Source: Bacteroidota bacterium (lineage in GTDB: Bacteria; Bacteroidota; Ignavibacteria; UBA10030; UBA8401). From it: a DNA stretch of 64,000 nucleotides. A program made the position numbers and the translations under genes. This document shows positions 1-14,256 of the stretch, one piece after another. Each line of letters starts with the position of its first letter. The stretch's first letter is position 1. The stretch covers positions 140 to 64,139 of the forward strand of contig JABWAK010000003.1 of the NCBI GenBank assembly GCA_013361065.1, in the 5' to 3' direction. Under the pieces are notes generated by a model, which saw only the letters and a list, made by a program, of their open reading frames with translations, made no database searches and was not told where the DNA came from.

Positions 1-519
1 GTGCAGTTCGTCTGCAAGCCGCTCGGCACGCCGTCCATCCCGACCGCGGACCGGAGTGGGTTGGTCGCATTCCAGAACAAAGGTGCGGAGCTGCAGCGGG
101 TGGTCTATGCTACCAATAACTATGTGAACGACCTTCGCTCCAAACTGACGGCGGTCAAGGCGGCGCTGATGCAGTCCCGCGCAGCGACCGGCACACTCGC
201 CGCGCAGGTGCGTCAGCTCGACGCGCGCCTGCTGGCAGTGAAGCGTGCGTTCAGCGGGGACGAGGTCCTGGCGCGCCGCGGCGAGAGTCCGTCGCCCGGC
301 ATCCTGGCGCGGCTCAACTCCATGACCGAGAGTTTCTATTCGTCCACCGCCGATGTGACCGAAACGCAGAAGAAAGCGTACCGCATCGCCTCCGAAGAAT
401 TCGGAGTGCAGTATGCGGAAGTGAAGACCATCGCGGAGAAGGAACTCCCGTCGCTCTACCAGCAGCTGGAACAGCTCGGTGCGCCGGTCATCCCCGGGCG
501 ATTGCCGGAATGGAAATGA
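1..519 (+). CDS. 3-prime end (172 codons) of a gene truncated by the window edge; helical C-terminal region of a large, probably secreted protein
   Basis: Frame is open from nt 1 to TGA 517-519 with backbone-like GC and codon usage. The tail ...LGAPVIPGRLPEWK resembles, from memory only, the conserved C-terminus of BNR/sortilin-VPS10-repeat proteins often annotated as glycosyl hydrolase. Confidence 0.5.
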   Translation: MQFVCKPLGTPSIPTADRSGLVAFQNKGAELQRVVYATNNYVNDLRSKLTAVKAALMQSRAATGTLAAQVRQLDARLLAVKRAFSGDEVLARRGESPSPGILARLNSMTESFYSSTADVTETQKKAYRIASEEFGVQYAEVKTIAEKELPSLYQQLEQLGAPVIPGRLPEWK

Positions 520-527
520 AAAGGCAA

Positions 528-690
528 TGAAGAATGATGAATGTAGAATGATGATTGTGACAAGGTCGATGCGCAAGGATAGCAGAAGAGCTGTCCCGCA
601 GATCTCGCAGAACTACGCAGAAAGAAAGAAGAAGAGCAATGATGAACGAGGAATGATGAATGAAGAATGGGCCAAGGTCGATGCGCAGGA
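528..690. repeat. Two copies of a ~45-bp direct repeat (gaatgatgaatg-type tract followed by caaggtcgatgcgca)
   Basis: The exact 15-mer caaggtcgatgcgca occurs at 561-575 and 673-687. Each copy is preceded by (g)aatga(t/a)ga tracts (528-560 and 648-670). Confidence 0.7.
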
Positions 691-733
691 AAGAATGCAA
701 CAACAGGCATAACCAAACATGATCCAAGAATCT

Positions 734-853
734 TGAAGCCCCGGGATTCATCCCTGGGTATCGAAATAATACCAGCACCCATCAGCCACGGGGTATCAAG
801 AGAACACCAGCCTCGCTATGCCCAGGGATTCATCTCGGGGTATCAAGAAAACA
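734..853. repeat. Tandem 81-82-bp repeat, locus A: one full unit plus an internally deleted unit
   Basis: Positions 734-835 are about 97% identical to 1066-1166. The marker gggattcatc recurs at 743 and 825 (period 82). The second unit lacks the segment between two catc motifs when compared with the unit at 1151-1231. Confidence 0.85.
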
Positions 854-906
854 ATGATCAAAAGCAATCACCGCAGAGCCTGCAAAGCACGCAGAGAAAC
901 GGTGTA

Positions 907-927
907 GGTCGAAGCGATGCTTCGACC
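907..927. repeat. Perfect 9-bp stem hairpin (ggtcgaagc-gat-gcttcgacc)
   Basis: Arms at 907-915 and 919-927 are exact reverse complements with a 3-nt loop. Confidence 0.8.
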
Positions 928-1015
928 AATATGTAAGAAGGGATGATATCCCGTCCACCCTAAAGGACCACAAAAGCACAAAAGAGAATTAAAAGAGTTT
1001 ACAAATTCGTATGTT

Positions 1016-1037
1016 GACCGAATCTCCAGATTCGGTC
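1016..1037. repeat. Perfect 9-bp stem hairpin (gaccgaatc-tcca-gattcggtc)
   Basis: Arms at 1016-1024 and 1029-1037 are exact reverse complements. A further 7-bp palindrome, taaccgt-c-acggtta, lies at 1049-1063. Confidence 0.8.
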
Positions 1038-1065
1038 CTCAAAGACAGTAACCGTCACGGTTACA

Positions 1066-1262
1066 TGAAGCCCCGGGATTCATCCCTGGGTATCGAAATA
1101 ATACCAGCACCCATCAGCCACGGGGTATCAAGAGAACACCAACCTCGCAATGCCCGGGATTCATCCCTGGGTATCGAAATAGCACCAGCACCCAGCAGCA
1201 TCGGGGTATCAAGAAAACACCAACCTCGCAACGCCCAGGGATTCATCCCGGAGTATGAAGAA
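1066..1262. repeat. Tandem 81-82-bp repeat, locus B: two full units plus a partial third
   Basis: gggattcatccc starts at 1075, 1156 and 1238 (periods 81 and 82). The units share gcccgggattcatccctgggtatcgaaata..accagcaccca..agc..cggggtatcaaga.aacaccaacctcgcaa. Confidence 0.9.
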
Positions 1263-1283
1263 TGCCTCCGGTAGACGCGGGAC

Positions 1284-1327
1284 GGTGACTGTCACCAGCA
1301 GAGAAGTTTTTATTGGTGACAGTCACC
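1284..1327. repeat. Pair of 13-bp palindromes (ggtgacTgtcacc / ggtgacAgtcacc) that are reverse complements of each other, 18 nt apart
   Basis: Read directly at 1284-1296 and 1315-1327, about 135 nt upstream of the CDS starting at 1461. Confidence 0.85.
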
Positions 1328-1460
1328 ATCTTATTTTAAATCCGCCCTCCCGGTCCGAAATGACCTCAAACGCCAATATTATTTTCTGGCAATCGGGGTT
1401 TTTCCTCTGTATGTTGGGGATGATCAGTGTTGTCATCTTCCCAACTATCCGGAGGGCATC

Positions 1461-2798
1461 ATGCAGCGTCACACGTTCCGCTCCTCACTCGTCCTTTCAC
1501 TCCTTCTCGTTTCCATCTCGCTTGCGCAGGAGGTCTCTCTCAACGATTTCCGCATCCGCGAATCCCGGTACCAGCGGTGGGATATCTCCGGGAGCGGTTC
1601 GATGTATGTGCAGACCGCCGGGAGCGGTTCTTCCACCAATTGGGGTGATGACGGGCGGCTGAATCTCAGTACGAGCTTCAGCAGGGTGTTCAATAGTGAG
1701 GATGAATTCTATCAGTTGTATGCAACATATGGATCAACTCTCTCAAAGGATTTCAACGGCTCACAATATTCATGGGATACTTCCCGGACTGTGTATCGTT
1801 CAGAATATCTCTCCGGTTTTACATCTGTCCTGTATGGGAAATACATCATCCCTGATGCATGGTACATGCATGTCGGGGGAAGTTTCCAGGGAATGAACGA
1901 GCTCACACGGTATGAAAGCCATCGTACCTCCGGGCCTCCGTCAATGTCGTTTAATAAGACAAGAATCGTGAATTCTTATCTGACCGGCGGTGTCGGGTAT
2001 GGCAAGATTCGGGATGCACGGGCGGTGATCGTTATCGTCCGCATCCTGGAGAATCTTTCGGAAGAAGGGGTCCTCGTCCGTCCGCTGAGCAATGATGAGA
2101 TCATTGCCATGGCAGAACAATATCATGCAAATCAGACAACCTCCGGTCAGTACGAACGGAAGACGAAGCACCTGATCGGTGCGATCATCAGCGACCTGTT
2201 GGATAAAGGACTCATCACCGCACAGCAGTCCATCGGATATGTGACCGGCAGGAGTATCGAAGTGTTCTCGGAGCAAATGTATTTTCGTCCGATCGGGTGG
2301 ACGGTGCAGACGGGTCCTTTGTTTGATTTCGATGAGTACCGGTCTTCATCGAGCAATTCTTCCTCTAACTATTCGAGGTTTCCCGATCACCGATGGAGAG
2401 TGTCTGCTGAATATGGCTCTGCGCTGACCCAATTCCTGCATTTCTCATCAAGGGCAACCGTCGATCTGCCGGTGCTCTCATGGCAGCGTCAACTGGAAGC
2501 AAGTATCAGTGCAGCACTGACCCATGAGATCGGGGAGCGGTCATCGGCATCGCTGTCGTTGTCGTGGAGCAAATATGAATCGGTCGGGGATATAGATGAT
2601 CCCGGGAGAAGCCATTCTAATCGTCACAATCTTTACATCGCCGCGGAGTATATATACTTCTTGGAAGATAATCTTTCGTTCAATATCGGAGTGAACTATA
2701 CGGACTATCGGTCGATCGCTCAGCAATTGATACTGACAACACGGGGTGTCCAGAATACCGGGATGGTGAATTTCAACATCGTGTATCGTCTAGATTGA
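1461..2798 (+). CDS. Hypothetical outer-membrane beta-barrel-like protein with signal peptide
   Basis: GGAGGG Shine-Dalgarno sequence 5 nt upstream of the ATG. N-terminus MQRHTFRSSLVLSLLLVSISLAQE looks like a signal peptide. Composition is rich in Tyr/Ser/Gly/Asn with alternating hydrophobic residues near the C-terminus (...GMVNFNIVYRLD). No family recognised. Confidence 0.6.
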   Translation: MQRHTFRSSLVLSLLLVSISLAQEVSLNDFRIRESRYQRWDISGSGSMYVQTAGSGSSTNWGDDGRLNLSTSFSRVFNSEDEFYQLYATYGSTLSKDFNGSQYSWDTSRTVYRSEYLSGFTSVLYGKYIIPDAWYMHVGGSFQGMNELTRYESHRTSGPPSMSFNKTRIVNSYLTGGVGYGKIRDARAVIVIVRILENLSEEGVLVRPLSNDEIIAMAEQYHANQTTSGQYERKTKHLIGAIISDLLDKGLITAQQSIGYVTGRSIEVFSEQMYFRPIGWTVQTGPLFDFDEYRSSSSNSSSNYSRFPDHRWRVSAEYGSALTQFLHFSSRATVDLPVLSWQRQLEASISAALTHEIGERSSASLSLSWSKYESVGDIDDPGRSHSNRHNLYIAAEYIYFLEDNLSFNIGVNYTDYRSIAQQLILTTRGVQNTGMVNFNIVYRLD

Positions 2799-3055
2799 CG
2801 AATATCCTTTGTCGATGATCTTCTCTCTCTGCAGCATGCCTTGTCCCGGTTCTGAAGACGATCCCTCAGTCCTAGACGAGGCATGCTGACATCCGGAGCA
2901 TCCCTTCGCGTACGAATTCCACCGGATTCTGCCATAAATCAGTGAAAATTCCAGTTTTTTCCCCGCCGAAAAAATCGTATCTTTTCGCACAAAAATGAAT
3001 CTATGAACATCCTCCGGTTGCTCTGCAGCGGAGGACATCGTGCGTAAGGAGTCCT

Positions 3056-4609
3056 ATGCCTGCCATCTTCAAGAACGAACCATTCACCGACTTCTCCAAA
3101 CCGGCCAACAAGAAAGCGATGCAGAAGGCGCTCACCAAGGTGCGCGCCGAGCTGGGACGCGAACATCCGATCGTGATCGGCGGCGAGAAGATCATGATGC
3201 CGGAGAAACTCTTCTCCTACAATCCCGCCAAACCGGGAGAGGTGATCGGTATCTTCCAGAAAGCGAATGTGGACCTGGCGAACCGCGCGGTGGAAGCCGC
3301 CGCTGCCGCCTTTGAATCCTGGAAGAATGTCCCTGCGAAGAAACGGGCCGAGTACCTGTTCAAAGCCGCCGCGCTGATGCGCAAGCGCAAATTCGATTTC
3401 TGCGCTCTGCTCACATATGAAGTGGGGAAATCGTGGGCCGAAGCGGATGCCGATACTGCCGAAGCGATCGACTTCCTGGAGTTCTACGGACGCGAGATGC
3501 TCCGCCTTGCCAAGCCGCAGCCGCTCACCAAGATCAAAGAGGAGAAGAACGAACTCCGCTACATCCCGCTCGGCGTCGGTGTCTGCGTTCCGCCGTGGAA
3601 CTTCGCGCTGGCGATCCTTGCCGGTATGGCCACCGCAGCCGTGGTCGCCGGGAACACCGTCGTGCTGAAGCCCTCCTCCGATTCCCCCGCTATCGGCTAC
3701 AAGTTCTTCGAACTGATGAACGAGGTCGGTCTGCCGAAGGGAGTCATCAATTTCATCACCGGACCGGGCGGTTCCGTCGGCGATACGATGGTCGCACACC
3801 CGAAGACCCGCTTCATTTCCTTCACCGGCTCCAAAGAGGTCGGCATCCACATCAACGAGCTTGCGGCGAAAGTGGTGCCGGGACAGATCTGGCTGAAACG
3901 CGTCGTGGCCGAGATGGGCGGGAAGGATTCCATCGTCATCGACAGTGAGACCGATCTGGATGCAGCGGCCGCAGCGACCGTGGCGTCCGCGTTCGGCTTC
4001 CAGGGACAGAAATGCTCCGCCGCATCGCGCGCCATCGTTGTCGCCTCCGTCTACGACAAGTTCGTGGAGAAGGTCGCCGAGCGGACGAAGAAACTCGTGG
4101 TCGGCGCGCCGGAGGATGCCGGAACATATATGGGTCCGGTGATCAACAAGGGCTCCATGGAGAAGATCATGGGATACATCGCCACGGCGGTGAAGGAAGG
4201 GGGCCGCATCGTGGCCGGCGGGAAACATGTGGGCGACGAGGGGTATTTCGTGGAACCGACCGTGATCGCCGATGTGGAACCGATGTCGACCATCGCACAG
4301 GAGGAGATCTTCGGTCCCGTGCTCGGCATCATCAAAGCGAAGGATTTCGATCACGCGATGGAGATCGCCAACAACACCGAGTTCGGTCTGACCGGCGGTG
4401 TCTGGACGAAGAACAAGAAGAAGCAGGAACGGGCCAAGAACGAGTTTCACGCCGGCAACTTCTACATCAACCGGAAGATCACCGGCGCGCTCGTCGGTGT
4501 GCATCCCTTCGGCGGATTCAATATGAGCGGCACCGATTCCAAAGCGGGCGGACGCGACTATCTGCTCCTCTTCACGCAGGCGAAACTGATCTCGCAGAAA
4601 ATAAAATAA
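3056..4609 (+). CDS. pruA: L-glutamate gamma-semialdehyde (1-pyrroline-5-carboxylate) dehydrogenase
   Basis: 517 aa with an AAGGAG Shine-Dalgarno sequence. Aldehyde dehydrogenase motifs present (FTGS, EMGGKD, GQKCSA catalytic Cys). N-terminus MPAIFKNEPFTDFS and the length are typical of RocA/PruA-type P5CDH. Confidence 0.9.
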   Translation: MPAIFKNEPFTDFSKPANKKAMQKALTKVRAELGREHPIVIGGEKIMMPEKLFSYNPAKPGEVIGIFQKANVDLANRAVEAAAAAFESWKNVPAKKRAEYLFKAAALMRKRKFDFCALLTYEVGKSWAEADADTAEAIDFLEFYGREMLRLAKPQPLTKIKEEKNELRYIPLGVGVCVPPWNFALAILAGMATAAVVAGNTVVLKPSSDSPAIGYKFFELMNEVGLPKGVINFITGPGGSVGDTMVAHPKTRFISFTGSKEVGIHINELAAKVVPGQIWLKRVVAEMGGKDSIVIDSETDLDAAAAATVASAFGFQGQKCSAASRAIVVASVYDKFVEKVAERTKKLVVGAPEDAGTYMGPVINKGSMEKIMGYIATAVKEGGRIVAGGKHVGDEGYFVEPTVIADVEPMSTIAQEEIFGPVLGIIKAKDFDHAMEIANNTEFGLTGGVWTKNKKKQERAKNEFHAGNFYINRKITGALVGVHPFGGFNMSGTDSKAGGRDYLLLFTQAKLISQKIK

Positions 4610-4653
4610 CGCAGTGGTACTCCATATATGATCCAAAACTTGATAGGTTGATT

Positions 4654-5763
4654 ATGCCAGAAGAGGAAGTGTTAAAAGAAGAGCTTGAAGATGTGACTCA
4701 AGTAGAAGATGAAACTGAAAAGGATGTTTCTGAAAGCAAAATAGTCTATAACATTACTTCTTACGGTTCGGACCCTGAAGTTGAAGGACTCGTTCAAAAA
4801 TTAAGAAAAGGTGATATTGTGATACCAGCTTTTCAAAGAGCTTTTGTGTGGAAAGAAGAAGATGCTTCTAGTTTTATCGAATCACTTATTTTAGGTCTTC
4901 CAGTTCCGGGTATTTTCCTTGCGACCGAACAGAAAACCAATAGAATGTTGGTAATTGATGGACAACAGAGATTGAAATCTTTACTGTTCTTTTATGAAGG
5001 GTATTTTGACCCGAAAAAAGAGGAAAAGAAACAAAAAGTATTTAAGTTGGTTAATGTACAGCCTCAACTGGAAGGTAAAACATATCAAACATTAGAGGAA
5101 AAAGATAAAAGGCGATTGGATAACTCAATTATTCATGCGACAATTATCAAACAGGAATCCCCCAAAGATGGAGATACAAGTATTTATCATATTTTTCACA
5201 GGTTAAATGCTGGCGGAATGATTTTAAAACCCCAAGAAATACGTAGAGCGGCGTTTCATGGTGCCTTTTTGGATGTGATTTCTGCACTAAATGATTATCA
5301 TAATTGGAGAAAAATATTTGGGAAAAAGAATCGTAGGTTGAAAGACGAAGAATTAATACTTCGATTCTTCGCTCTCTATTTTGATATCGATAGTTATCAG
5401 AAGCCTATGGAAGAATATCTAAATACATTTTGTTCAAAGAAATCAAAGGCTGAATCACAATTTTTTAAAGAGTGCGAATTATTATTTACATCATCTATCG
5501 ATGTATTTTTCGATGCGGTAGGTGATAGAGCGTTTAAACCAAAACGAGTGATAAATGCTGCAGTGTTTGATTCAATGATGGTTGGATTGGCTTCGCGATT
5601 AGCTAAATCTTCGCTTACAGATATAGATGGATTTAGAAATGCATATATTGGTTTAATAGATAATCCAGAGTATCAAAAATATACTACGGATGGGACATCA
5701 GATGTTGCAACAGTCGCGTCAAGAATTAATATGACAAAAGCGGCATTTAGTTCCATCAAATGA
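4654..5763 (+). CDS. DUF262 (ParB-like / GmrSD N-terminal type) domain protein, 369 aa, with no recognisable DUF1524/HNH nuclease domain
   Basis: First ATG after the pruA stop, in the frame of track ORF 4012..5763. Motifs IPAFQRAFVW, DGQQR (4957-4971) and FHRLNAGGMILKPQE are present. 13 of the first 30 residues are D/E. Confidence 0.8.
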   Translation: MPEEEVLKEELEDVTQVEDETEKDVSESKIVYNITSYGSDPEVEGLVQKLRKGDIVIPAFQRAFVWKEEDASSFIESLILGLPVPGIFLATEQKTNRMLVIDGQQRLKSLLFFYEGYFDPKKEEKKQKVFKLVNVQPQLEGKTYQTLEEKDKRRLDNSIIHATIIKQESPKDGDTSIYHIFHRLNAGGMILKPQEIRRAAFHGAFLDVISALNDYHNWRKIFGKKNRRLKDEELILRFFALYFDIDSYQKPMEEYLNTFCSKKSKAESQFFKECELLFTSSIDVFFDAVGDRAFKPKRVINAAVFDSMMVGLASRLAKSSLTDIDGFRNAYIGLIDNPEYQKYTTDGTSDVATVASRINMTKAAFSSIK

Positions 5764-6230
5764 AAAACATTGAACTAGTAAAACAGATTCAACGGATAAA
5801 AGATCTAATCGATAAAACATCGGATGCATCCGCTGATAGCTTGGAACTTCAATCACATTGGGCTAAGTATCTTTGTGTTCTATGTTCGGGTCTATTAGAA
5901 AATTCCATTCCAGAATTGTATGGTGAATACGTAAAAAAGAAATCAAACCAAGAGATAAATCATTTTGTTGTTAGCAACCTAGAAAAATATTTAAATCCTA
6001 AAACAGGAAGGTTCATTGAAGTATCGAATGCATTTAATAAAGATTGGGGTAGAGAACTAGAACTCTTTGTAGATCAAGATGGTCGTAGAGAGGCAATTGA
6101 CGCAATTATCGCAAATAGGCATAAAATTGCACACGGTGAAGATTCTGGTATTACGGTTGTAAAAATAAAGGAATATCTTAAAAGAATTATCGAAGTTCTT
6201 AATTTTATCGAGACCCAAACAAAGAGGTAG
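5760..6230 (+). CDS. Small HEPN-domain protein (Rx4H motif), resembling the MAE_28990/MAE_18760-type HEPN family
   Basis: 156 aa. The ATG overlaps the upstream stop (ATGA, 5760-5763). [13 protein letters not shown] carries R120-x4-H125 (6117-6134). The family name is recalled from memory and not verified. Confidence 0.7.
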
Positions 6231-6235
6231 TTACT

Positions 6236-7399
6236 ATGAAGATCCACGAATATCAAGGCAAAGACATCCTCCGGAAATTCAACGTTCCCGTGCCGCGCGG
6301 TGAAGTGGCGTTCTCGGTGGACGATGCGGTGAATGCCGCGAAGCGGCTCGGCGGCAGCGTCTGGGTGGTGAAGGCGCAGATCCACGCCGGCGGTCGCGGA
6401 AAAGGGGGCGGAGTGAAAGTGGCGAAGAGTCTGGACGAAGTGAAACAGTACGCGAAACAGATTCTCGGCATGACGCTCGTGACCCATCAGACCGGTCCGG
6501 AAGGCCGTCTCGTGAAACGCCTGCTGATCGAAGAAGGGGCGAACATCGACAAGGAATTCTACGTCGGTATCACTTTGGACCGCGCCCAGTCCAAGAACGT
6601 GATGATGGTCTCCACCGAAGGGGGTATGGAGATCGAGAAGGTGGCGGAGGAGCATCCGGAGAAGATCGTGAAAGAGACGATCGAACCGTCCGTCGGATTC
6701 CAGCAGTTCCAGGCGCGCAAGCTCGCCTTCGCGCTCGGCCTGACCGGCGATGCGTTCAAGAACGGCGTGAAATTCCTGCTCTCCCTCTATAAGGCGTATG
6801 AAGCGACCGATGCATCGCTGTTCGAGATCAATCCGCTCGTGGTGACCAAAGAGGGGAATGTGGTCGCGCTGGATGCTAAAGTGAACTTCGACGACAACGC
6901 ACTCTACCGCCATCCGGAATTCGCCGAACTGCGCGATCTGGACGAGGAAGAGCCGCTGGAGATCGAAGCATCCAAGAGCAACCTGAACTATATCAAGCTG
7001 GACGGCAACGTCGGCTGCATGGTGAACGGCGCCGGTCTGGCGATGGCCACCATGGACATCATCAAGCTTGCCGGCGGTGAACCGGCCAACTTCCTGGATG
7101 TGGGCGGCGGAGCGAATGCCACCACCGTGGCGAACGGCTTCAAGATCATCCTGTCCGACAAGAACGTGAAAGCGATCCTCATCAACATCTTCGGCGGTAT
7201 CGTCCGGTGCGACCGTGTGGCGAACGGCGTGGTGGAAGCGGCCAAGGCGGTCCATGTGCAGGTGCCGATCGTCATCCGTCTTGCCGGCACCAATGCCGAT
7301 ATCGCGGCGGACATCCTCCGGAACTCCGGCATGAGCTTCCTCGTCGCCGAGAACCTGAAGGATGCTGCGGACAAGGTGACCAAGGCGCTGGCTGCGTAA
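6236..7399 (+). CDS. sucC: Succinate--CoA ligase (ADP-forming) beta subunit
   Basis: 387 aa. [22 protein letters not shown]..., [15 protein letters not shown] and a C-terminal CoA-ligase domain ([11 protein letters not shown]). Confidence 0.95.
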
Positions 7400-7419
7400 A
7401 CGAACCAACGGGAGGACGG

Positions 7420-7611
7420 ATGAAAGGGATCGAATACGTCGTAGACAGTAAAGGTCGGAAGAAAGCAGTTGTCGTGGATCTGAAAGTCCACGGCGATGCT
7501 TGGGAAGATTTCTATGACTCTCTCACTGCACGGATGCGTGCCAATGAACCGCGTGAATCGTATGCATCTGTCCGCGCAAAGTTAAAATCGAAAGGGAAAG
7601 TCCGTGCGTGA
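7420..7611 (+). CDS. Putative type II antitoxin (63 aa) paired with a RelE/ParE toxin
   Basis: GGAGG Shine-Dalgarno sequence, small size, and its stop overlaps the toxin GTG start. The call rests on position and size; the antitoxin family was not recognised. Confidence 0.55.
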   Translation: MKGIEYVVDSKGRKKAVVVDLKVHGDAWEDFYDSLTARMRANEPRESYASVRAKLKSKGKVRA

Positions 7612-7864
7612 GTACGGACTTCTTTTTACTCGTTCTGCCAGGAAAGAATTGGAGCAAATTCCTGACTCTGCCTGTGAACGCATCCTTTCTGCAGTAGAAT
7701 CGTTGTCACAACATCCGTTCCCCTCCGGTTGTAAGAAGCTGAGAGGGGAACGTCATTTGTGGCGCATTCGTGTCGGTGATTACCGGATCGTTTATTCCGT
7801 TCTTTCCGACCAATTGATCATCGAGATCATCAGAATACGGCATCGGAAAGAGGTGTATCAATAG
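7604..7864 (+). CDS. RelE/ParE family type II toxin
   Basis: 86 aa with a GTG start at 7604. ...KKLRGERHLWRIRVGDYRIVYSVLSDQLIIEIIRIRHRKEVY is the typical RelE/ParE (plasmid stabilisation) core. About 45% GC in a sampled line. Confidence 0.85.
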   Translation: MREYGLLFTRSARKELEQIPDSACERILSAVESLSQHPFPSGCKKLRGERHLWRIRVGDYRIVYSVLSDQLIIEIIRIRHRKEVYQ

Positions 7865-7887
7865 TCAAGTATGCTGTTGTTCCAATA

Positions 7888-7925
7888 ATTCCCCGTCGGT
7901 TCATCCCGTACGGGGAATTTTTTTG
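7888..7925 (+). terminator. Rho-independent terminator after the RelE/ParE gene
   Basis: attccccgt (7888-7896) pairs with acggggaat (7910-7918) and is followed by a run of T to 7925. Confidence 0.7.
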
Positions 7926-7975
7926 TACATCCCTCAGTTCTTATGGACGGCCACACTCAGAAAGGAATATGTCCA

Positions 7976-9025
7976 ATGCTCTCCATCGCCGTTCGTTCCA
8001 TCATCGCACTGCTCCTGCTGCTTCCCGGCAGCACTGTCCCAACCGCCGCCGCACAGGACAGTCCAACCGCTGCACCGCTCTCCGTCCGCGGTATCGTGCT
8101 GGACGGCTCCGGCGTCCGTTGGTTCGCAACGGATGGAGAGGGACTCATCCGGTATCACAACGGTACGTTCCGTTATCTCTCTGAACAGGATGGACTCCTG
8201 AGCCGCTTTGTGCGGACGATCCAGACGGGAAAGAATGGCGATCTCCTGCTGACCACGGCGAGAGGAATCATGCGGTATGACGGTATCAGATTCACAACGC
8301 TCCCGGAACCGGGCACTGTTCTGCCGGATGCTCCGGAGTTCCTGAAACGGTCGAAGAACGATGACCGGTGGTTCGGTGCGAAGGATGGCGCCTACCGCTT
8401 CGACGGCACGACACTGCACTACGTCGCATTCCCGATCGACTCTGCGGACATTACCGAGCGCCGTGCGCGGCCCGGCAGGATACGATCCGAGTATGCGGTC
8501 TATTCCGTGCTGAAGGACAAGAGCGGGAACATTTGGTTCGGAACGGAGCAGCGGGGTGTTCTCCGGTATGACGGACGCTCATTCCGGTGGTTCCGCGAGA
8601 AAGGATTGAGTGACGGTGCGGTCAGGACGATCTTTCAGGACCGTTCCGGCGTTCTCTGGTTCGGCAACAATGCGGAAGGTCTGTTCCGGTACGACGGAAC
8701 AACGCTGCGGAACATCACCGAGGAACAGGGATTGGGGAATCCGGAGTTCAAGAAAGGACTCAAAGGGAAGGAAGGGACGCTGGCGCGGGTCTGGACGATC
8801 ACGGAGGACCGGGCTGGAACGCTCTGGGTCGGCACGATCGATGCCGGTCTCTGGTCGTACCGCAACGGAGTGTTCACCAACTATACAATGAAGGACGGAC
8901 TTCCGGCGAATGCCGTGCAGTCACTCACCCTCGATCCGGACGGGCGTCTGTGGATCGGAACAGGGAACGGTATCTGCATCTACGACGGGAAGAAGTTCTC
9001 TCCGTTCATCATCCCCCCGCGGTGA
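7976..9025 (+). CDS. Secreted two-component-regulator-propeller (Reg_prop) repeat protein
   Basis: Signal-like MLSIAVRSIIALLLLLPGSTVPTAAAQ. Repeated G.(I/L)W(F/V/I)GT..G(L/V).RYDG motifs. An alternative upstream ATG lies at 7943. Confidence 0.75.
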   Translation: MLSIAVRSIIALLLLLPGSTVPTAAAQDSPTAAPLSVRGIVLDGSGVRWFATDGEGLIRYHNGTFRYLSEQDGLLSRFVRTIQTGKNGDLLLTTARGIMRYDGIRFTTLPEPGTVLPDAPEFLKRSKNDDRWFGAKDGAYRFDGTTLHYVAFPIDSADITERRARPGRIRSEYAVYSVLKDKSGNIWFGTEQRGVLRYDGRSFRWFREKGLSDGAVRTIFQDRSGVLWFGNNAEGLFRYDGTTLRNITEEQGLGNPEFKKGLKGKEGTLARVWTITEDRAGTLWVGTIDAGLWSYRNGVFTNYTMKDGLPANAVQSLTLDPDGRLWIGTGNGICIYDGKKFSPFIIPPR

Positions 9026-9190
9026 GTCATCCGATGCGCACGTGATGAGATAAGATGAAGTTTCATAGGCATTTATCGAAGTATTTCGTAAATTGAGACG
9101 ATATCGTTGCCGATGAAGCCATCCCGTGGGGCGGGCGATGCATCATCCCCCCTCCGCGGGTCCGTGAAACCATTCTCCGTTGAAGTGAAC

Positions 9191-10657
9191 ATGTCCATCC
9201 ACGAGCAATTCGAAGCGGTCATCGGACTCGAGGTCCACGCCCAGCTCTCCACACGATCCAAGATCTTCTGCGGCTGTTCCACCGCCTTCGGCAGCGCCCC
9301 CAATTCCAATGTCTGTCCCGTCTGCCTCGGCATGCCCGGCGTGCTGCCGGTGCTGAACAAACAGGTGGTGGAGTATGCCATCCGCCTCGGTCTGGCGACC
9401 GGCTGCAGCATCAATCCCCGTTCCATCTTTGCACGCAAGAACTACTTCTATCCCGACCTGCCCAAAGGATACCAGATCTCCCAGTATGAGGAGCCGATCT
9501 GCCGTCACGGCCATGTGGACATCACCAATGACGACGGTACGGTGAAGCGCATCGGCATCACGCGCATCCATATGGAAGAGGATGCCGGGAAATCGATCCA
9601 TGATCAGGACCATGATACCCTGGTGGATGTGAACCGCTGCGGCACGCCGCTGCTGGAGATCGTCAGCGAACCGGACATGCGCTCGGCGCAGGAGGCGGTA
9701 CGCTATCTCACCTCCGTATGGCAGACGGTGAAGTATCTGGATATCTGCGACGGGAATATGGAGGAGGGAAGCTTCCGCTGCGATGCCAACGTCTCCGTCC
9801 GCAAAAAAGGGGAGACGAAACTCGGCACGAAGACGGAACTGAAGAACATGAACTCGTTCCGGAACGTGGAACGGGCCATCGAGTATGAGACCCAACGGCA
9901 GATCGAGCTGATCGCCGAAGGCGGAGCGGTCGTGCAGGAGACGCTCCTCTGGAATGCGGAAAAGAACACCGCCTCCTCCATGCGCAGCAAGGAAGAGGCG
10001 CACGATTACCGCTACTTCCCCGATCCGGACCTGGTGCCGGTGGTGGTGGATGAACACTGGATCGCCGCCGTTCGGATGGAACTGCCCGAACTCCCGGCAG
10101 TCCGCCGCGCCCGTTTCGTCGGCGAGTACAAACTGCCGCCGTACGATGCGGAGGTGCTGACGCAGGAACGTCCGCTGGCCGACTATTTTGAAGGGGCCGT
10201 GCGCGTCCTGGCGAACAGGAATGATGAGCAGGTGAAGACGGTCAGCAACTGGGTGATGACCGAGGTGATGCGGGTGATGAACGAGCGCGGGACTACGATC
10301 ACGGAGTTCCCGGTGTCGCCGGACCATCTCGGTGCACTGGTGGAGCTGATCGGCAACGGGACCATCAGCGGCAAGATCGCGAAGGAGGTCTTCGCGGAGA
10401 TGGTTGCCACCGGTGAGCATCCCAAAGCGGTCGTGGAGCGGAAAGGACTGGTGCAGATCTCCGATTCCGGCGCCATCGAGAAAGAGATCGATGTCATCCT
10501 CGCCAAATTCCCGAACGAGATCGCCCGCTTCCGTGCCGGCGAAGCGAAACTGATGGGATTCTTCGTCGGCGAGACGATGAAAGTGATGAAGGGGAGAGGA
10601 AACCCGAAACTGATCAATGAGATATTGGGAAGAAAATTATCGGAATTGAATCATTGA
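9191..10657 (+). CDS. gatB: Asp-tRNA(Asn)/Glu-tRNA(Gln) amidotransferase subunit B
   Basis: [19 protein letters not shown]..., [12 protein letters not shown] and [14 protein letters not shown]. The internal ATG at 9191 was chosen over the track start at 9107. Confidence 0.93.
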
Positions 10658-10681
10658 TCCATTGAATCATTGATTCAATTC
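10643..10681. repeat. AT-rich CATTGA-family intergenic repeat, copy 1 (overlaps the gatB stop)
   Basis: gaattgaatca (10643-10653) and tgattcaattc (10671-10681) are reverse complements. Core tcattgatccattga lies at 10651-10665. Confidence 0.8.
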
Positions 10682-10739
10682 GTTGCAGCAACACATTTTT
10701 CAACAACAGACCATTCTTTTTATCTATCTTGAGGACAAT

Positions 10740-11495
10740 ATGCGCACCAAAGTGATCGCCGGCAACTGGAAAATGAACAATGATATCACGCAGACAACAG
10801 AACTGATCAACGGACTCAAAGCCGCACTGGCGGGAAAGAGTCTGAATGCAACCGTGGTTGTCTGTCCTCCCTTCACCTCGCTCGGAACGGCGCAGCAGCT
10901 GATCGCCGGTTCTGTGATCACACTCGGGGCTCAGGATGTGTCGCTGTATGACAGCGGCGCCTATACGGGGGAGGTCTCCGTCGGTATGCTGAAAGCGGTC
11001 GGATGCACCTATGTGATCGTGGGACATTCCGAGCGGCGCCAGTATCATGGCGAGACGAATGAGATCATCAATCAGAAAGCGAAGAAGGTGCTGGCGGGAG
11101 GACTCATCCCGATCATCTGCGTCGGTGAGACGCTCCAGGAGCGGGAGCAGAACATCACGGATACGGTGCTGACCACCCAGACGACCGGAGTGCTGGCCGG
11201 ACTCACGGCGGAGCAGGTGGAGCGTTCCATCATCGCCTATGAACCGGTCTGGGCGATCGGAACAGGGAAGACCGCCACGAAAGAACAGGCGGAACAGGCC
11301 CATGTGGTCATCCGGTCCGTGATCGCCTCCCTGTATTCCCCGGCAACGGCGGACAAGGTGGTCATCCAATACGGCGGCAGCGTGAAGGCAGATAACGCCA
11401 AAGAGCTCCTTTCCCAGCCGAATATCGACGGCGCCCTGGTCGGCGGAGCCTGTCTGAAGGCAGATTCCTTCGCCTCCATCATCACGGCCGTGTGA
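10740..11495 (+). CDS. tpiA: Triose-phosphate isomerase
   Basis: MRTKVIAGNWKMN, VGHSERR and AYEPVWAIGTG. The internal ATG at 10740 was chosen. Confidence 0.95.
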   Translation: MRTKVIAGNWKMNNDITQTTELINGLKAALAGKSLNATVVVCPPFTSLGTAQQLIAGSVITLGAQDVSLYDSGAYTGEVSVGMLKAVGCTYVIVGHSERRQYHGETNEIINQKAKKVLAGGLIPIICVGETLQEREQNITDTVLTTQTTGVLAGLTAEQVERSIIAYEPVWAIGTGKTATKEQAEQAHVVIRSVIASLYSPATADKVVIQYGGSVKADNAKELLSQPNIDGALVGGACLKADSFASIITAV

Positions 11496-11507
11496 CCCCT
11501 CCGCGCA

Positions 11508-11545
11508 GCGCTGAAAAATCACTTAACCTGTTGATTTTTCAGCGC
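11508..11545 (+). terminator. 14-bp perfect inverted repeat downstream of tpiA (possible terminator hairpin)
   Basis: gcgctgaaaaatca (11508-11521) pairs with tgatttttcagcgc (11532-11545) around a 10-nt loop. The T run lies inside the stem rather than after it. Confidence 0.4.
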
Positions 11546-11667
11546 TTATGCGCTCCCAAATAGGGGAAAATATCTCTTGGTTTCAGCTGGTTCGTGTGTT
11601 ATATTTACGTTGTTTTCTTTGTAAAAATGCTTAAAACAACGAAAATTCAACAATTTCGGGCTAATCG

Positions 11668-14256
11668 TTGAACAATTCGCTCTTTCGATTTTCCGTTTAT
11701 TTGTTCGTTCCGCTCCTCCTCGCATCTACTCTATTTTCCCAGCAGTTATTCTTCGAAAATGGCACGCCGTCGCACCCGAATGTACTCGGGTACGGGTCGG
11801 CGAACCGCCCGGTGATCGATCTTGCCGGGGATTGGACCTATTCTCTTGATAACGGAGTGACATGGAATGCGGTCCGTATTCCTGCCGCTGCGGACTATAC
11901 CGGTAAGATCGTCTACCGCCGCACATTCTCCGTCACCGAAAGCTCCGTTTCGAACAATTCCTACGCGTTCATCTCGTACGGGATGAATTATGCAGCGGAT
12001 GTCTATGTGAACGAGACCTTCGTCGGCCGTCACGAAGGGGGCTACACTTCGTTCGAGTTCGCCATTCCGGAGAATGTCATCCAGGTCGGTTCCGAGAATG
12101 TCATCCGTGTGGTGGTGGACAATACGCTCACGTATCGCACCACCTTCCCGCCGCGTCCGCATATCTCCTCCTGGAAGAATTATAACGGCATCCTCCGCGA
12201 TCTCTTCATCGAAGCACGTCCGAAACTCTGGATCGGTAATGCGAATGTGGTGGTGGAAGCGATCGAACCGAAAGCTGTCAAACTGCTCGTTACCGCCACA
12301 GTGAGCGCCAAGGACCTTTCTGCACTGCCGCAGCTCACCGGAAAGACGCTGCAGCTCTCTGCGGACATCGCGGAAACGGCGAATGCGGTCGCCATCGGTA
12401 AGTCGGTGGTGCAGTCGGTCGTGCCTCAGTCGAACGGCGATGTGACTGTCCGCCTGACGCTGACACTCCCCAATGCGAAGCTCTGGTCACCGGAGACCCC
12501 TGACCTGTACACCGTCACTCTCTCGCTCATCGCTGCGGAAGGGAAGAAGGATTCGCTCATCGACCGGTCGGTGCTCTCCACCGGGATCAGGACCTTTACG
12601 CGGGAGAAAGGGACGCTGCTGCTCAACGGCGCTCCCGTTGCGCTGCGCGGGGTCGTCTGGATCGAGGACTCCGAACGCTTCGGCAGTGCGATGACCTATG
12701 AAGAGATGGAGCGGGATGTGGCGCTCATTAAAAGTCTCGGCGCCAACACTGTCCGCATCGGATTCCATCCCCCGCATCCGTTCTTCCTGCAGCTCTGCGA
12801 CCGTTACGGTCTGATGGCGATGGTGGAGGTCCCGAATGTGGAGATCCCGGCCGCGGTCGTGGAAGAGGAGAATTATCGTACACTGGTGTCCGCTGCGGTG
12901 AAAGAAATGATCGCACGCGACCGGTACCGTCCTTCGGTGATCGCCTGGGGACTCGGTGAAGGGTCGGCCTATGCACCGTCCATCGAGAACAGCATCCTCA
13001 CGCAGATCCATCAGCTGGCCAAATCGCTCGATGACCGGCTGACATATGTTGTGGTACGCGGTCCGTCGGACGATGCGGCATCGGTGACGGACATCGCTGC
13101 CATCGCCGTGGCGCCGACCGATCCGAAGAAGTTCCGCGCACGACTGCAGGCATTCAAGGAAGCGAATCCGAAACGTCCGGTGATCGTGGCGGCCTACGGC
13201 CGTCCGACGGAGCTCGGCAACCGGAACGGGTACAGCGATCCCCATTCGCAGGAAGCGCAGGCGCGGTTCATCCACCAGCGTTATGCGGCGATCAAGGATA
13301 TGGGGTTCGCCGGTTCGTTCATCTTCTCGTTCAATGATTTCCGCAGTGACCGTCCGGGACTGACGATGCGTCCGCTGCAGCCCACCGTGCATGCGTACGG
13401 CGTCGTGGAATCGGGCCGCCAGAAGAAGGTAGCCTACGACCTGATGCATTCGGTCTATCACGACCAGAAGGTCTCCGCGCTGCCGGTCGGTACGTATGTG
13501 GCATCGGTGCCGTACGTGTATGTGATCATCGGTCTGGTGCTGCTGGTGACCGCCGCCTGGATGCTGAACAGCAACCGCCGGTTCCGCGAGAGCGCCTGGC
13601 GCTCCATCTTCAAATCGTACAATTTCTTCGCCGATATCCGGGACCAGTTCACGCTCCCGCTGTTCCACACCACGCTGACGGCAGTGATCATCTCCGTCAC
13701 CGTGTCGGTGATCTTCTCCAGTCTGCTGCATCATTTCCGTCAGGACCCGCTCTTCGACCACATCCTCTCACAGCTCCTCTCCGACGATGTGAAGATGATC
13801 ATCATCCGGATGTGCTGGGACCCGCTGTTGAGCGTTGGATACCTGACCGGCGTGATGCTCGTGTGGTTCGTCCTGCTCACGGTGATGGTGCAGCTGTTCG
13901 CCATGGTCGCGCGGGTGAAGATCCGGCTGTTCCATTCCTATTCCATCGCCGTCTGGACCACCGCACCGTGGGGCTTCTTCATCCCGGTCGGCATGATCCT
14001 GTACCGTGTGCTGGAGAGCGATCCGTACGTTCCGTGGGTGCTGCTGCTGGTGGCGTTCATGTCCGCCTGGGTCTATCTGCGCACCCTGAAAGGGATCTCG
14101 GTGATCTATCACGTCTACACTCCCAAGATGTACATGATCGGTCTCACCGTGATGCTCATCGCTGCCGGCGCCGTCTATGCCTATGCGGACTATGCCTTCG
14201 CGTTCACGGCGTACACCGAGTTCTACCTCACCCGGCTCCTCCCGTACGTTCACTAA
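11668..14256 (+). CDS. GH2-like (sugar-binding / Ig / TIM-barrel) ectodomain fused to a C-terminal polytopic membrane domain
   Basis: 862 aa with a TTG start per the track. N-terminal signal/anchor, then a GH2-type N-terminal region (VYVNETFVGRHEGGYTSFEF). The last ~260 residues contain about 5-6 hydrophobic helices. Confidence 0.65.
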   Translation: MNNSLFRFSVYLFVPLLLASTLFSQQLFFENGTPSHPNVLGYGSANRPVIDLAGDWTYSLDNGVTWNAVRIPAAADYTGKIVYRRTFSVTESSVSNNSYAFISYGMNYAADVYVNETFVGRHEGGYTSFEFAIPENVIQVGSENVIRVVVDNTLTYRTTFPPRPHISSWKNYNGILRDLFIEARPKLWIGNANVVVEAIEPKAVKLLVTATVSAKDLSALPQLTGKTLQLSADIAETANAVAIGKSVVQSVVPQSNGDVTVRLTLTLPNAKLWSPETPDLYTVTLSLIAAEGKKDSLIDRSVLSTGIRTFTREKGTLLLNGAPVALRGVVWIEDSERFGSAMTYEEMERDVALIKSLGANTVRIGFHPPHPFFLQLCDRYGLMAMVEVPNVEIPAAVVEEENYRTLVSAAVKEMIARDRYRPSVIAWGLGEGSAYAPSIENSILTQIHQLAKSLDDRLTYVVVRGPSDDAASVTDIAAIAVAPTDPKKFRARLQAFKEANPKRPVIVAAYGRPTELGNRNGYSDPHSQEAQARFIHQRYAAIKDMGFAGSFIFSFNDFRSDRPGLTMRPLQPTVHAYGVVESGRQKKVAYDLMHSVYHDQKVSALPVGTYVASVPYVYVIIGLVLLVTAAWMLNSNRRFRESAWRSIFKSYNFFADIRDQFTLPLFHTTLTAVIISVTVSVIFSSLLHHFRQDPLFDHILSQLLSDDVKMIIIRMCWDPLLSVGYLTGVMLVWFVLLTVMVQLFAMVARVKIRLFHSYSIAVWTTAPWGFFIPVGMILYRVLESDPYVPWVLLLVAFMSAWVYLRTLKGISVIYHVYTPKMYMIGLTVMLIAAGAVYAYADYAFAFTAYTEFYLTRLLPYVH

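Follow-up and report, generated by a model that had tools for sequence, protein, structure and literature searches.

A low-GC DUF262–HEPN gene pair between pruA and sucC of an uncultured Bacteroidota-like bacterium is a probable PD-T4-2-type anti-phage module

A 64,000-nucleotide stretch of contig JABWAK010000003.1 (assembly GCA_013361065.1, positions 140 to 64,139 of the forward strand; hereafter the window) comes from an uncultured Bacteroidota-like bacterium of high guanine-plus-cytosine (GC) content. It contains an islet of two GC-poor genes between the core-metabolism genes pruA and sucC, which raises the question of how these genes came to lie there and what they do. Gene A encodes a DUF262 protein and gene B a small HEPN protein with a predicted ribonuclease (RNase) site. 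We find that the islet was acquired horizontally, that both proteins belong to the families that make up the PD-T4-2 anti-phage system of Escherichia coli, and that the two genes form a unit that recurs across phyla, on plasmids and in phages. The islet is therefore probably a functional PD-T4-2-type anti-phage module, present here as a stand-alone pair of a DUF262 and a RiboL-PSP-type HEPN gene.

A low-GC islet in place of the native pruA–sucC intergenic region

The islet and both of its neighbours are encoded on the plus strand. On the left, pruA (3056–4609; 1-pyrroline-5-carboxylate dehydrogenase, 517 amino acids) ends with a TAA codon at 4607–4609 and is followed by 44 nucleotides (4610–4653) that comprise the left junction and the leader of gene A, and that, by comparison with the intergenic regions of the four closest genomes (L001–L004), take the place of a terminator-like hairpin. 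Gene A (4654–5763) most likely starts at the ATG at 4654, which yields a protein of 369 amino acids in agreement with the 365–369 amino acids of its homologues. The stop codon of gene A overlaps the start codon of gene B (5760–6230; 156 amino acids) within an ATGA tetranucleotide (5760–5763), an arrangement indicative of translational coupling that is also present in five other loci (L081, L084, L088, L090 and L097). Gene B terminates with TAG at 6228–6230, and a spacer of five nucleotides (TTACT, 6231–6235) leads to the ATG of sucC at 6236 (6236–7399; succinyl-CoA synthetase beta subunit, 387 amino acids).

The composition of the islet departs strongly from that of its surroundings. In 300-nucleotide windows, GC content falls to 0.33–0.37 over positions ~4650–6150, compared with 0.58–0.63 in pruA and sucC, and the A–B pair as a whole (1,577 nucleotides) has a GC content of 0.342, corresponding to z = -9.4 when set against the 593 remaining windows of equal size in the 64 kilobases (mean 0.591, standard deviation 0.026, minimum 0.495). 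No other stretch of the window lies below 0.46. GC content at third codon positions (GC3) stands at 0.25 in each of the two islet genes, as against 0.66–0.86 along pruA and sucC up to both junctions, with pruA remaining at 0.72–0.84 as far as its stop codon. The sequence-only reading of this DNA had described the low-GC block with its A/T-ending codons, the positions of the pruA stop and of the DGQQR and RHKIAH motifs, and the five nucleotides before sucC; all of these agree with the sequence and with our sliding-window and codon-position measurements. It had also reported the absence of mobility features, and indeed we detect no mobility gene among the neighbouring open reading frames (pruA, sucC, a ParE toxin–antitoxin pair, a Reg_prop protein, gatB and tpiA), no transfer RNA (tRNA) gene in the whole window and no direct or inverted flanking repeat at the islet borders. 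No terminator-like hairpin is present between gene B and sucC, no Rfam family matches window positions 1–12000, and a scan for sigma-70 sites, using a consensus that does not cover Bacteroidota promoters, gave no excess over chance within the islet.

Comparison with related genomes, as the sequence-only reading had called for, identifies the islet as an insertion. A PruA scan of species-representative genomes yielded 80 loci, of which the four closest encode PruA and SucC proteins 86–90% and 94–97% identical, respectively, to those of the window. In these four genomes, pruA and sucC are directly adjacent, which is why we regard the islet as inserted; the two genes are separated by only 62–78 nucleotides that comprise a GC-rich terminator-like hairpin and an AGGAG ribosome-binding site, with sucC directly following pruA in L001–L003. 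The pruA–sucC synteny is found in 19 of the 80 loci, including the nearest four, and neither gene A nor gene B is present in any of the 80. In the window, the native intergenic region has been replaced in its entirety, such that the ribosome-binding region of sucC now lies within the 3' end of gene B, where the last HEPN codons provide a purine-rich stretch. Since synteny resumes on both sides, the islet is not an assembly chimera. With its deviant composition and an empty site in the nearest relatives, the islet is horizontally acquired, as the foreign appearance of the two genes had originally suggested. The flanks bear no sign of a recombination tract, as judged from sliding identity to L001–L003 and from GC3, which is native up to both junctions.

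In the wider clade, the pruA–sucC gap is variable, being empty in most genomes. A zinc-ribbon gene (~165 amino acids) fills the gap in L008, L041 and L081, and in L180 at least the C-terminal portion of this gene is found, while a small lipoprotein-like gene occupies the gap in L017, L037 and L043. The inserts of L005 and L010 were considered as alternative cargo and rejected; both are pckA at native GC content and are not mobile.

Two protein families shared with PD-T4-2

Gene A matches the Pfam family GmrSD_N (DUF262, PF03235; E = 5e-32) over residues 44–201, placing it among the ParB/Srx-like NTPases. At E ≤ 1, Pfam reports no DUF1524 (His-Me finger nuclease) domain, and gene A thus consists of a DUF262 region and a C-terminal helical domain without a nuclease domain. 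The best-scoring PADLOC profile is NsnA (E = 5.7e-67, model positions 22–381 of 385), and the PD-T4-2_A profile also matches from end to end (E = 1.1e-57, residues 13–366 on model positions 9–362 of 363), whereas the profiles for SspE, HEC-05 and HEC-06 cover only the N-terminal 20–130 residues, and those for related GmrSD-like proteins are likewise confined to the N-terminal part. No NCBIfam model matches gene A or gene B. The DGQQR motif (D102–R106; 4957–4971) belongs to the 71 positions that are invariant across 43 gene A homologues, and it is likewise invariant in an alignment of 45. According to the literature (PMC10952713), as well as mutants of HEC-06, this motif serves nucleotide binding and hydrolysis in DUF262 proteins. 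An AlphaFold2 (AF2) model of gene A (mean predicted local distance difference test score, pLDDT, of 81) comprises an alpha/beta N-terminal domain and a confidently predicted helical C-terminal domain ending at residue 369. The best Foldseek matches of this model in the PDB are BrxU (7p9k, E = 2.7e-4), SspE (6jiv, E = 6.5e-3) and the N-terminal domains of ParB, Noc and KorB; BrxU is also the sole PDB match at the sequence level. In BrxU, SspE and HEC-06, the DUF262 domain is reported to bind or hydrolyse nucleoside triphosphates (NTPs) and to couple the sensing of modified or phosphorothioated DNA to the activation of a linked nuclease.

Gene B matches the Pfam family HEPN_RiboL-PSP (PF18735) with E = 4.9e-18 and 66 bits (cut-off 28.4) and, secondarily, HEPN_MAE_28990 (PF18737) with E = 1.5e-6. 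The sequence R120-H-K-I-A-H125 (6117–6134) constitutes an Rx4H motif, the catalytic signature of HEPN domains, which are typically dimeric RNases. Across 52–54 aligned sequences, H125 and E47 are invariant and R120 is conserved in at least 90%. On the basis of the Pfam profile match and the conserved motif, we assign gene B to the HEPN proteins and predict it to be a stand-alone RNase effector with an intact Rx4H site. The AF2 model is all-helical, with seven helices and a pLDDT of 96; a PDB sequence search with gene B returned no match. For both genes, therefore, the family membership read from the sequence alone, DUF262 with DGQQR and HEPN with Rx4H, is upheld by the profile matches and by the conservation of the motifs among homologues.

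The combination of these two families corresponds to PD-T4-2, a system of E. coli ECOR65 that was found by selection with phage T4, listed as 'DUF262, HEPN' and validated experimentally (Vassallo et al. 2022, PMC9519451). Deletion of PD-T4-2 from native ECOR65 raises T4 plaquing, and the cloned system also protects (Vassallo et al. 2022, PMC9519451). PD-T4-2 occupies positions 338334–339873 of QOYX01000002, a region with RCO39066.1 and an unannotated frame for PD-T4-2B. It comprises two open reading frames spanning 1,540 nucleotides, with PF03235 as the top HHpred match of the first protein and PF18735 (97.8%) followed by PF18737 (96.9%) as those of the second (PMC9519451). The window pair shares the arrangement of two adjacent genes on the same strand with A preceding B, a first protein of ~363–369 amino acids with PF03235, no DUF1524 and an end-to-end PD-T4-2_A match, and a second protein of ~150–170 amino acids with PF18735 and secondary PF18737. 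This likeness is judged from the reported HHpred families and the PADLOC profiles rather than from identity to the ECOR65 proteins, for which the pairs of E. coli IncX1 and IncF plasmids, a P2-like phage and an Akkermansia phage served as substitutes. The pairs differ in that the host here is an uncultured Bacteroidota-like bacterium rather than E. coli, and in that the window pair is known from its genes alone. DUF262–HEPN neighbourhoods have indeed been noted in silico, as the sequence-only reading had said: Table 1 of Anantharaman et al. 2013 (PMC3710099) lists a 'Ribo L-PSP-HEPN ... operon with ParB'. In the same survey, related HEPN genes share operons with genes for ParB and methylases (PMC3710099). 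The further point of that reading, that an experimentally characterised system composed of these two genes alone was lacking, is contradicted by PD-T4-2 itself (PMC9519451). Later reviews and surveys count PD-T4-2 as one of the systems with DUF262 and HEPN domains and describe it as largely uncharacterised, and the literature that we searched contained no mechanistic paper on PD-T4-2 or its family.

Several other systems share one of the two components or the overall logic. Menshen consists of NsnABC (Millman et al. 2022), where NsnA combines DUF262 with ParBDB, NsnB is an ABC ATPase with DUF3696, and NsnC carries an inactive PIN domain together with a BECR-type effector (PMC12065111). Gene A has the NsnA architecture, a ParB-DUF262 region followed by a C-terminal helical domain, and the logic of a sensor with an RNase effector proposed for Menshen (PMC12065111) is also the one that we propose for the window pair. 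Membership in Menshen is nevertheless rejected, as neither NsnB nor NsnC is present and gene A is followed by the HEPN gene and then sucC. With GmrSD, BrxU and SspE, gene A shares the N-terminal DUF262 domain with its DGQQR pocket, and BrxU and SspE are its best structural matches, but the lack of a DUF1524 His-Me finger nuclease domain excludes it from this group; the predicted effector of the window pair is instead a separate HEPN protein of the RNase type rather than a deoxyribonuclease (DNase). In PD-lambda-5, a ParB/HEPN protein is paired with a methyltransferase (Vassallo et al. 2022, PMC9519451). This system and the ParB-HEPN operons and fusions of Anantharaman 2013 resemble the window pair in combining ParB-like and HEPN domains, and some homologues of the window pair adjoin methylases. 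In the window, however, the domains reside on separate proteins and no methyltransferase is nearby. The HEPN-MNT toxin–antitoxin systems (type II/VII) also contain a small HEPN protein of RNase type that is held in check by the product of an adjacent gene, as may be the case here, but the pair was rejected as a member, because the partner is a DUF262 NTPase rather than a minimal nucleotidyltransferase and gene B belongs to a different HEPN family (PF18735).

An N-terminal variant of the DUF262 component is seen in the homologous pair of the Hymenobacter plasmid NZ_CP095048.1 (L088, 3476–5041), where the DUF262 protein carries an MTaX1 (methylase-associated X1) domain at its N-terminus (E = 1.6e-28). 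It represents a sensor-domain variant similar to the 'type II' NsnA proteins described for Menshen, and the pair adjoins genes for a tyrosine recombinase, an HNH endonuclease and a Z1-domain protein.

Distribution of the pair and its recurrence upstream of sucC

Genes A and B co-occur as an obligate unit. A word search, which gives a lower bound, recovered at least 6,695 relatives of gene A, more than 120 of them at ≥ 51% identity and all of these ~365–370 amino acids in length, while only ~30 homologues of gene B reach 50% identity. When the gene B family was searched for exhaustively by profile, 2,012 cluster representatives (clustered at 50% identity) passed E ≤ 1e-3, and 376 of them also passed E ≤ 1e-30. 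In metagenomes, B was recovered in 80 loci, none with a relative of gene B above 56% identity. Among the 72 of these with at least 300 nucleotides 5' of B, gene A lies directly upstream on the same strand in 67 (93%). In all other sampled loci for which a downstream gene was called, A is likewise followed by B, often with the ATGA overlap.

The module is large and crosses phyla, with copies on plasmids and phages. The pair is carried by IncX1 and IncF plasmids of E. coli and Salmonella, by a Hymenobacter plasmid, by an Akkermansia phage and by a P2-like coliphage, and adjoining tblastn matches to A and B are found on plasmids of Rhodococcus, Arthrobacter and Phaeobacter. In all 12 other loci that were measured, the GC content of the pair is below that of its flanks. 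Many settings are defensive or mobile. In one, a SNF2 helicase precedes the pair and an N6_N4 methylase and ResIII follow; in another, TraG and MazG lie upstream and a type III restriction-modification (R-M) system downstream; in a third, a type III R-M system lies upstream, with a DUF87 ATPase and a TIR protein downstream. Further copies adjoin AbiEii in one locus and HicAB in another, or are found next to PLD-SNF2, DUF499 and a DDE transposase. Stand-alone pairs are also common (L081, L093, L094, L114, L131 and plasmids), including islets that follow a class II aminoacyl-tRNA synthetase gene in an actinobacterial metagenome-assembled genome, that lie between pheS and a ribonucleotide reductase gene, or that follow ribBA. 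Among the 45 metagenome loci with room for neighbours, only three contain a homologue of SNF2, methylase or ResIII of the kinds tested.

The five closest homologues of gene B are all located immediately 5' of sucC, with the sucC of one, on a JGI contig, unconfirmed, whereas more distant homologues are found elsewhere. In the window, which serves as the reference, the order is pruA, A, B, a 5-nucleotide gap and sucC. The JGI contig carrying P0002 (JGI 3300075153) encodes a B protein 72% identical to that of the window, with the next gene, not confirmed as sucC, starting 9 nucleotides after B. In L081 and L083 (67% identity), pruA is followed by the zinc-ribbon gene, a gene of 188 amino acids, A, B and sucC; in L180 (61%), the order is the zinc-ribbon gene, A and B, after which the contig ends with ATGAAG; and in L101 (54%), A and B precede sucC by 27 nucleotides. 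The hosts at this address encode SucC proteins 71–78% identical to that of the window, and their flanks have a GC content of 0.39–0.59, compared with 0.33–0.41 for the pair. No integrase, repeat or tRNA gene was detected near the pair in these loci. The 188-amino-acid gene of L081, a 1.26-megabase relative, lies directly upstream of the DUF262 gene (4229–4795) and has no Pfam match; its GC content of 0.31–0.33 is like that of the pair, and it is absent from the window. It may represent a third cargo gene of that islet.

Recent acquisition rather than long residence is favoured by the 25-point difference in GC content, by the low GC3 (0.25) and by the lack of the pair at this site in the four nearest relatives. 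The likely donor is a relative of lower GC content in which the pair was already present at the sucC address. Codons 2–7 of sucC in the window resemble those of the islet-bearing loci, and include CAA, which accounts for only 2 of the 67 glutamine codons in host genes. In addition, sucC begins with ATG AAG in all four islet-bearing loci, as opposed to ATG AAA in seven relatives that lack the islet. This stretch is very short, and the AT-richness of N-terminal coding regions confounds the resemblance. One possible origin of the shared address is that defence cargo is exchanged at this locus by way of homology in the flanking core genes. Another is a site-specific mode of insertion of a new kind, where the islet is retained as transcription of sucCD runs through it.

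The surroundings of the islet contain additional features of note. Just 3' of sucC, positions 7420–7864 (GC ~0.49) encode a 63-amino-acid open reading frame without a Pfam match that overlaps the gene for an 86-amino-acid ParE-family toxin (PF05016, E = 1.1e-15). In L001 and L003, sucC is directly followed by gatB, and in L002 the sucC–gatB gap holds a homologue of the antitoxin with 73% identity. The same gap of the window contains a 360-amino-acid two-component-regulator propeller protein (7943–9025; Reg_prop, E = 2e-25), for which no counterpart was found at this position in the related loci examined. Upstream of pruA lies a 445-amino-acid open reading frame without a Pfam match (1461–2798); L001 and L002 have paralogue-like copies of it, 29–34% identical, ahead of their own pruA genes, two of them in L001. 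Further upstream, within 740–1262 (also 524–575 and 636–687), three intergenic repeat copies of ~81–110 nucleotides are 84–89% identical to each other, and each opens with the near-palindrome CCCGGGATTCATCCCTGGG. A separate 52-nucleotide repeat pair is present in the same region, which is strongly AT-skewed and has no Rfam match; the repeat could be an element resembling repetitive extragenic palindromes or miniature inverted-repeat transposable elements (REP/MITE-like). Genome GC content is very labile within the clade, with GC3 values of 0.39 in L003, 0.64 in L001 and L002 and ~0.8 in the window, in spite of PruA identities of 86–90%. The L002 contig (CALRIY020000026.1) belongs to a record titled Synechococcus sp. 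UW140 and displays Bacteroidota-like pruA-sucC-gatB-tpiA synteny with 89–94% identity to the window proteins; it is probably mis-binned.

Proposed mechanism, competing explanations and implications

Given the families shared with PD-T4-2, the profile match of gene A and the settings of the homologues among defence and mobile genetic elements, the defence or abortive-infection role that the sequence-only reading had put forward is the best reading of the islet. The invariance of DGQQR, H125 and E47, together with the conservation of R120 in at least 90% of homologues, indicates selection on the catalytic residues. We suggest that A acts as both sensor and switch, binding invading and possibly modified phage DNA and changing state through NTP binding or hydrolysis. 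A may sense modified DNA, since PD-T4-2 was selected on phage T4, the DNA of which carries glucosyl-hydroxymethylcytosine. B would be the effector and, by analogy with other HEPN proteins, would dimerise to form the Rx4H RNase site, with the ATGA overlap fixing the ratio of B to A. Prior to infection, A would hold B inactive, whereas its NTPase cycle would release or activate B once a phage has entered. The activated B could then cleave RNA of the host, the phage or both (tRNA, ribosomal RNA or messenger RNA) and so block propagation of the phage, with growth arrest as the probable price. That A is more strongly conserved than B is in keeping with a sensor that stays constant while its effector diversifies. 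The family may represent a modified-DNA sensor of the type IV restriction kind, comparable to those of GmrSD and BrxU, whose output is an RNase in place of a DNase. That this is so, or that the lineage is bound to a single chromosomal address, or both, appears doubtful at present, and each of the mechanistic steps is clearly less likely than the presence of a functional PD-T4-2-type module.

A number of observations weigh against the islet being a PD-T4-2-type module. No PADLOC family matches gene B at E ≤ 1, PD-T4-2_B included, and PADLOC would therefore not call the locus PD-T4-2; gene A, moreover, scores slightly higher on NsnA than on PD-T4-2_A. The prospect that a classifier would assign the pair to a characterised system is consequently borne out for A (PD-T4-2_A, E = 1.1e-57) and not for B. 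Comparison of the gene B family profile with those of other partner HEPN proteins gave weak similarity, at probabilities of 85% for the IncX1 plasmid, 5% for the Akkermansia phage and 2% for the P2-like phage. A Foldseek search with the gene B model returned no PDB match at E ≤ 0.001, and the weaker matches include HEPN domains (3o10, 4nqf, 1ufb, 2hsb, 8xeh and 1jog) with TM (template modelling) scores of 0.31–0.45 and E > 0.9. The locus is situated between housekeeping genes rather than in a defence island. Finally, all of the mechanistic steps are drawn by analogy with GmrSD, BrxU, SspE and other HEPN RNases, and it is only in this way that we infer the trigger, the RNA target, the manner in which A controls B and the kind of outcome, be it abortive infection or direct immunity. 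As for the missing profile match, the B proteins of L081, L084 and the E. coli IncX1 plasmid likewise have no match to PD-T4-2_B, and among the homologues tested only the partner in the Akkermansia phage reaches it, weakly (E = 4e-4). The PADLOC PD-T4-2_B model thus appears narrow.

Both genes are small, are coupled in translation and invariably occur together, as would be expected if the islet were primarily a toxin–antitoxin or addiction module, with B as toxin, A as protein antitoxin, loss of the locus killing the cell, and defence no more than a by-product. According to the literature, toxin–antitoxin systems often employ HEPN toxins; homologues of the pair are neighbours of replication genes in E. 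coli IncX1 plasmids and of pemIK in an IncF plasmid, stand-alone copies lie between housekeeping genes in several genomes, and a second toxin–antitoxin pair (ParE) is located only 1.2 kilobases away in the window. Yet A is an enzyme-like protein of 369 amino acids with an invariant NTP-binding motif and many other invariant residues, unlike a small labile antitoxin. It precedes B, as antitoxins do, but is far more conserved than B, as expected of a sensor with a diversifying effector, and PD-T4-2, the sole member tested, was isolated by phage selection and protects its native strain. We therefore consider a primary addiction role unlikely, while noting that addiction and defence are compatible rather than mutually exclusive. 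The pair could also be an orphaned R-M accessory that depends on a SNF2 helicase, a methylase and ResIII, and that, separated from them here, is non-functional or decaying cargo. Homologues (A 62–64% and B 53–55% identical) are embedded in SNF2/N6_N4 methylase/ResIII operons, related HEPN genes occur in operons with ParB and methylase genes (Anantharaman 2013, PMC3710099), and PD-lambda-5 couples a ParB/HEPN protein to a methyltransferase. However, both reading frames of the window are intact, full length and retain all conserved catalytic residues, PD-T4-2 operates with two genes only, stand-alone pairs are common, and just three of the 45 metagenome loci have a SNF2, methylase or ResIII homologue of the kinds tested, making an orphaned accessory quite improbable.

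The placement immediately 5' of sucC of the five closest B homologues (54–72% identical; the sucC of the JGI contig unconfirmed), together with the 5-nucleotide spacer and the lack of a terminator in the window, would also be consistent with a housekeeping or regulatory function that is inherited vertically and linked to the expression of sucC. The empty sites bring this explanation close to refuted, and we attach next to no probability to it: the pair is absent from all 80 genomes recovered with pruA, including the 19 with pruA–sucC synteny, a GC3 of 0.25 in a genome with a GC3 of 0.8 is incompatible with long residence, and the more distant homologues occupy unrelated and often defensive or mobile settings in many phyla.

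A functional PD-T4-2-type module, as we favour, would not constitute a new class of immunity; rather, the locus extends the PD-T4-2-type module of DUF262 and RiboL-PSP-HEPN proteins to an uncultured high-GC Bacteroidota-like bacterium. Since current classifier profiles recognise the A component only, calls that require both components would miss loci such as that of the window. As a compact stand-alone pair with an invariant DGQQR and a conserved Rx4H motif, it is a reasonable subject for studying the control of a predicted HEPN RNase by a ParB-like NTPase. Its recurrence upstream of sucC provides a small but concrete case in which to study the movement of defence cargo between hotspots that are flanked by core genes and lack mobility genes. 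The value of the locus thus rests on the mechanistic question posed by the family, on the blind spot of classifiers for B and on the recurrent sucC address.

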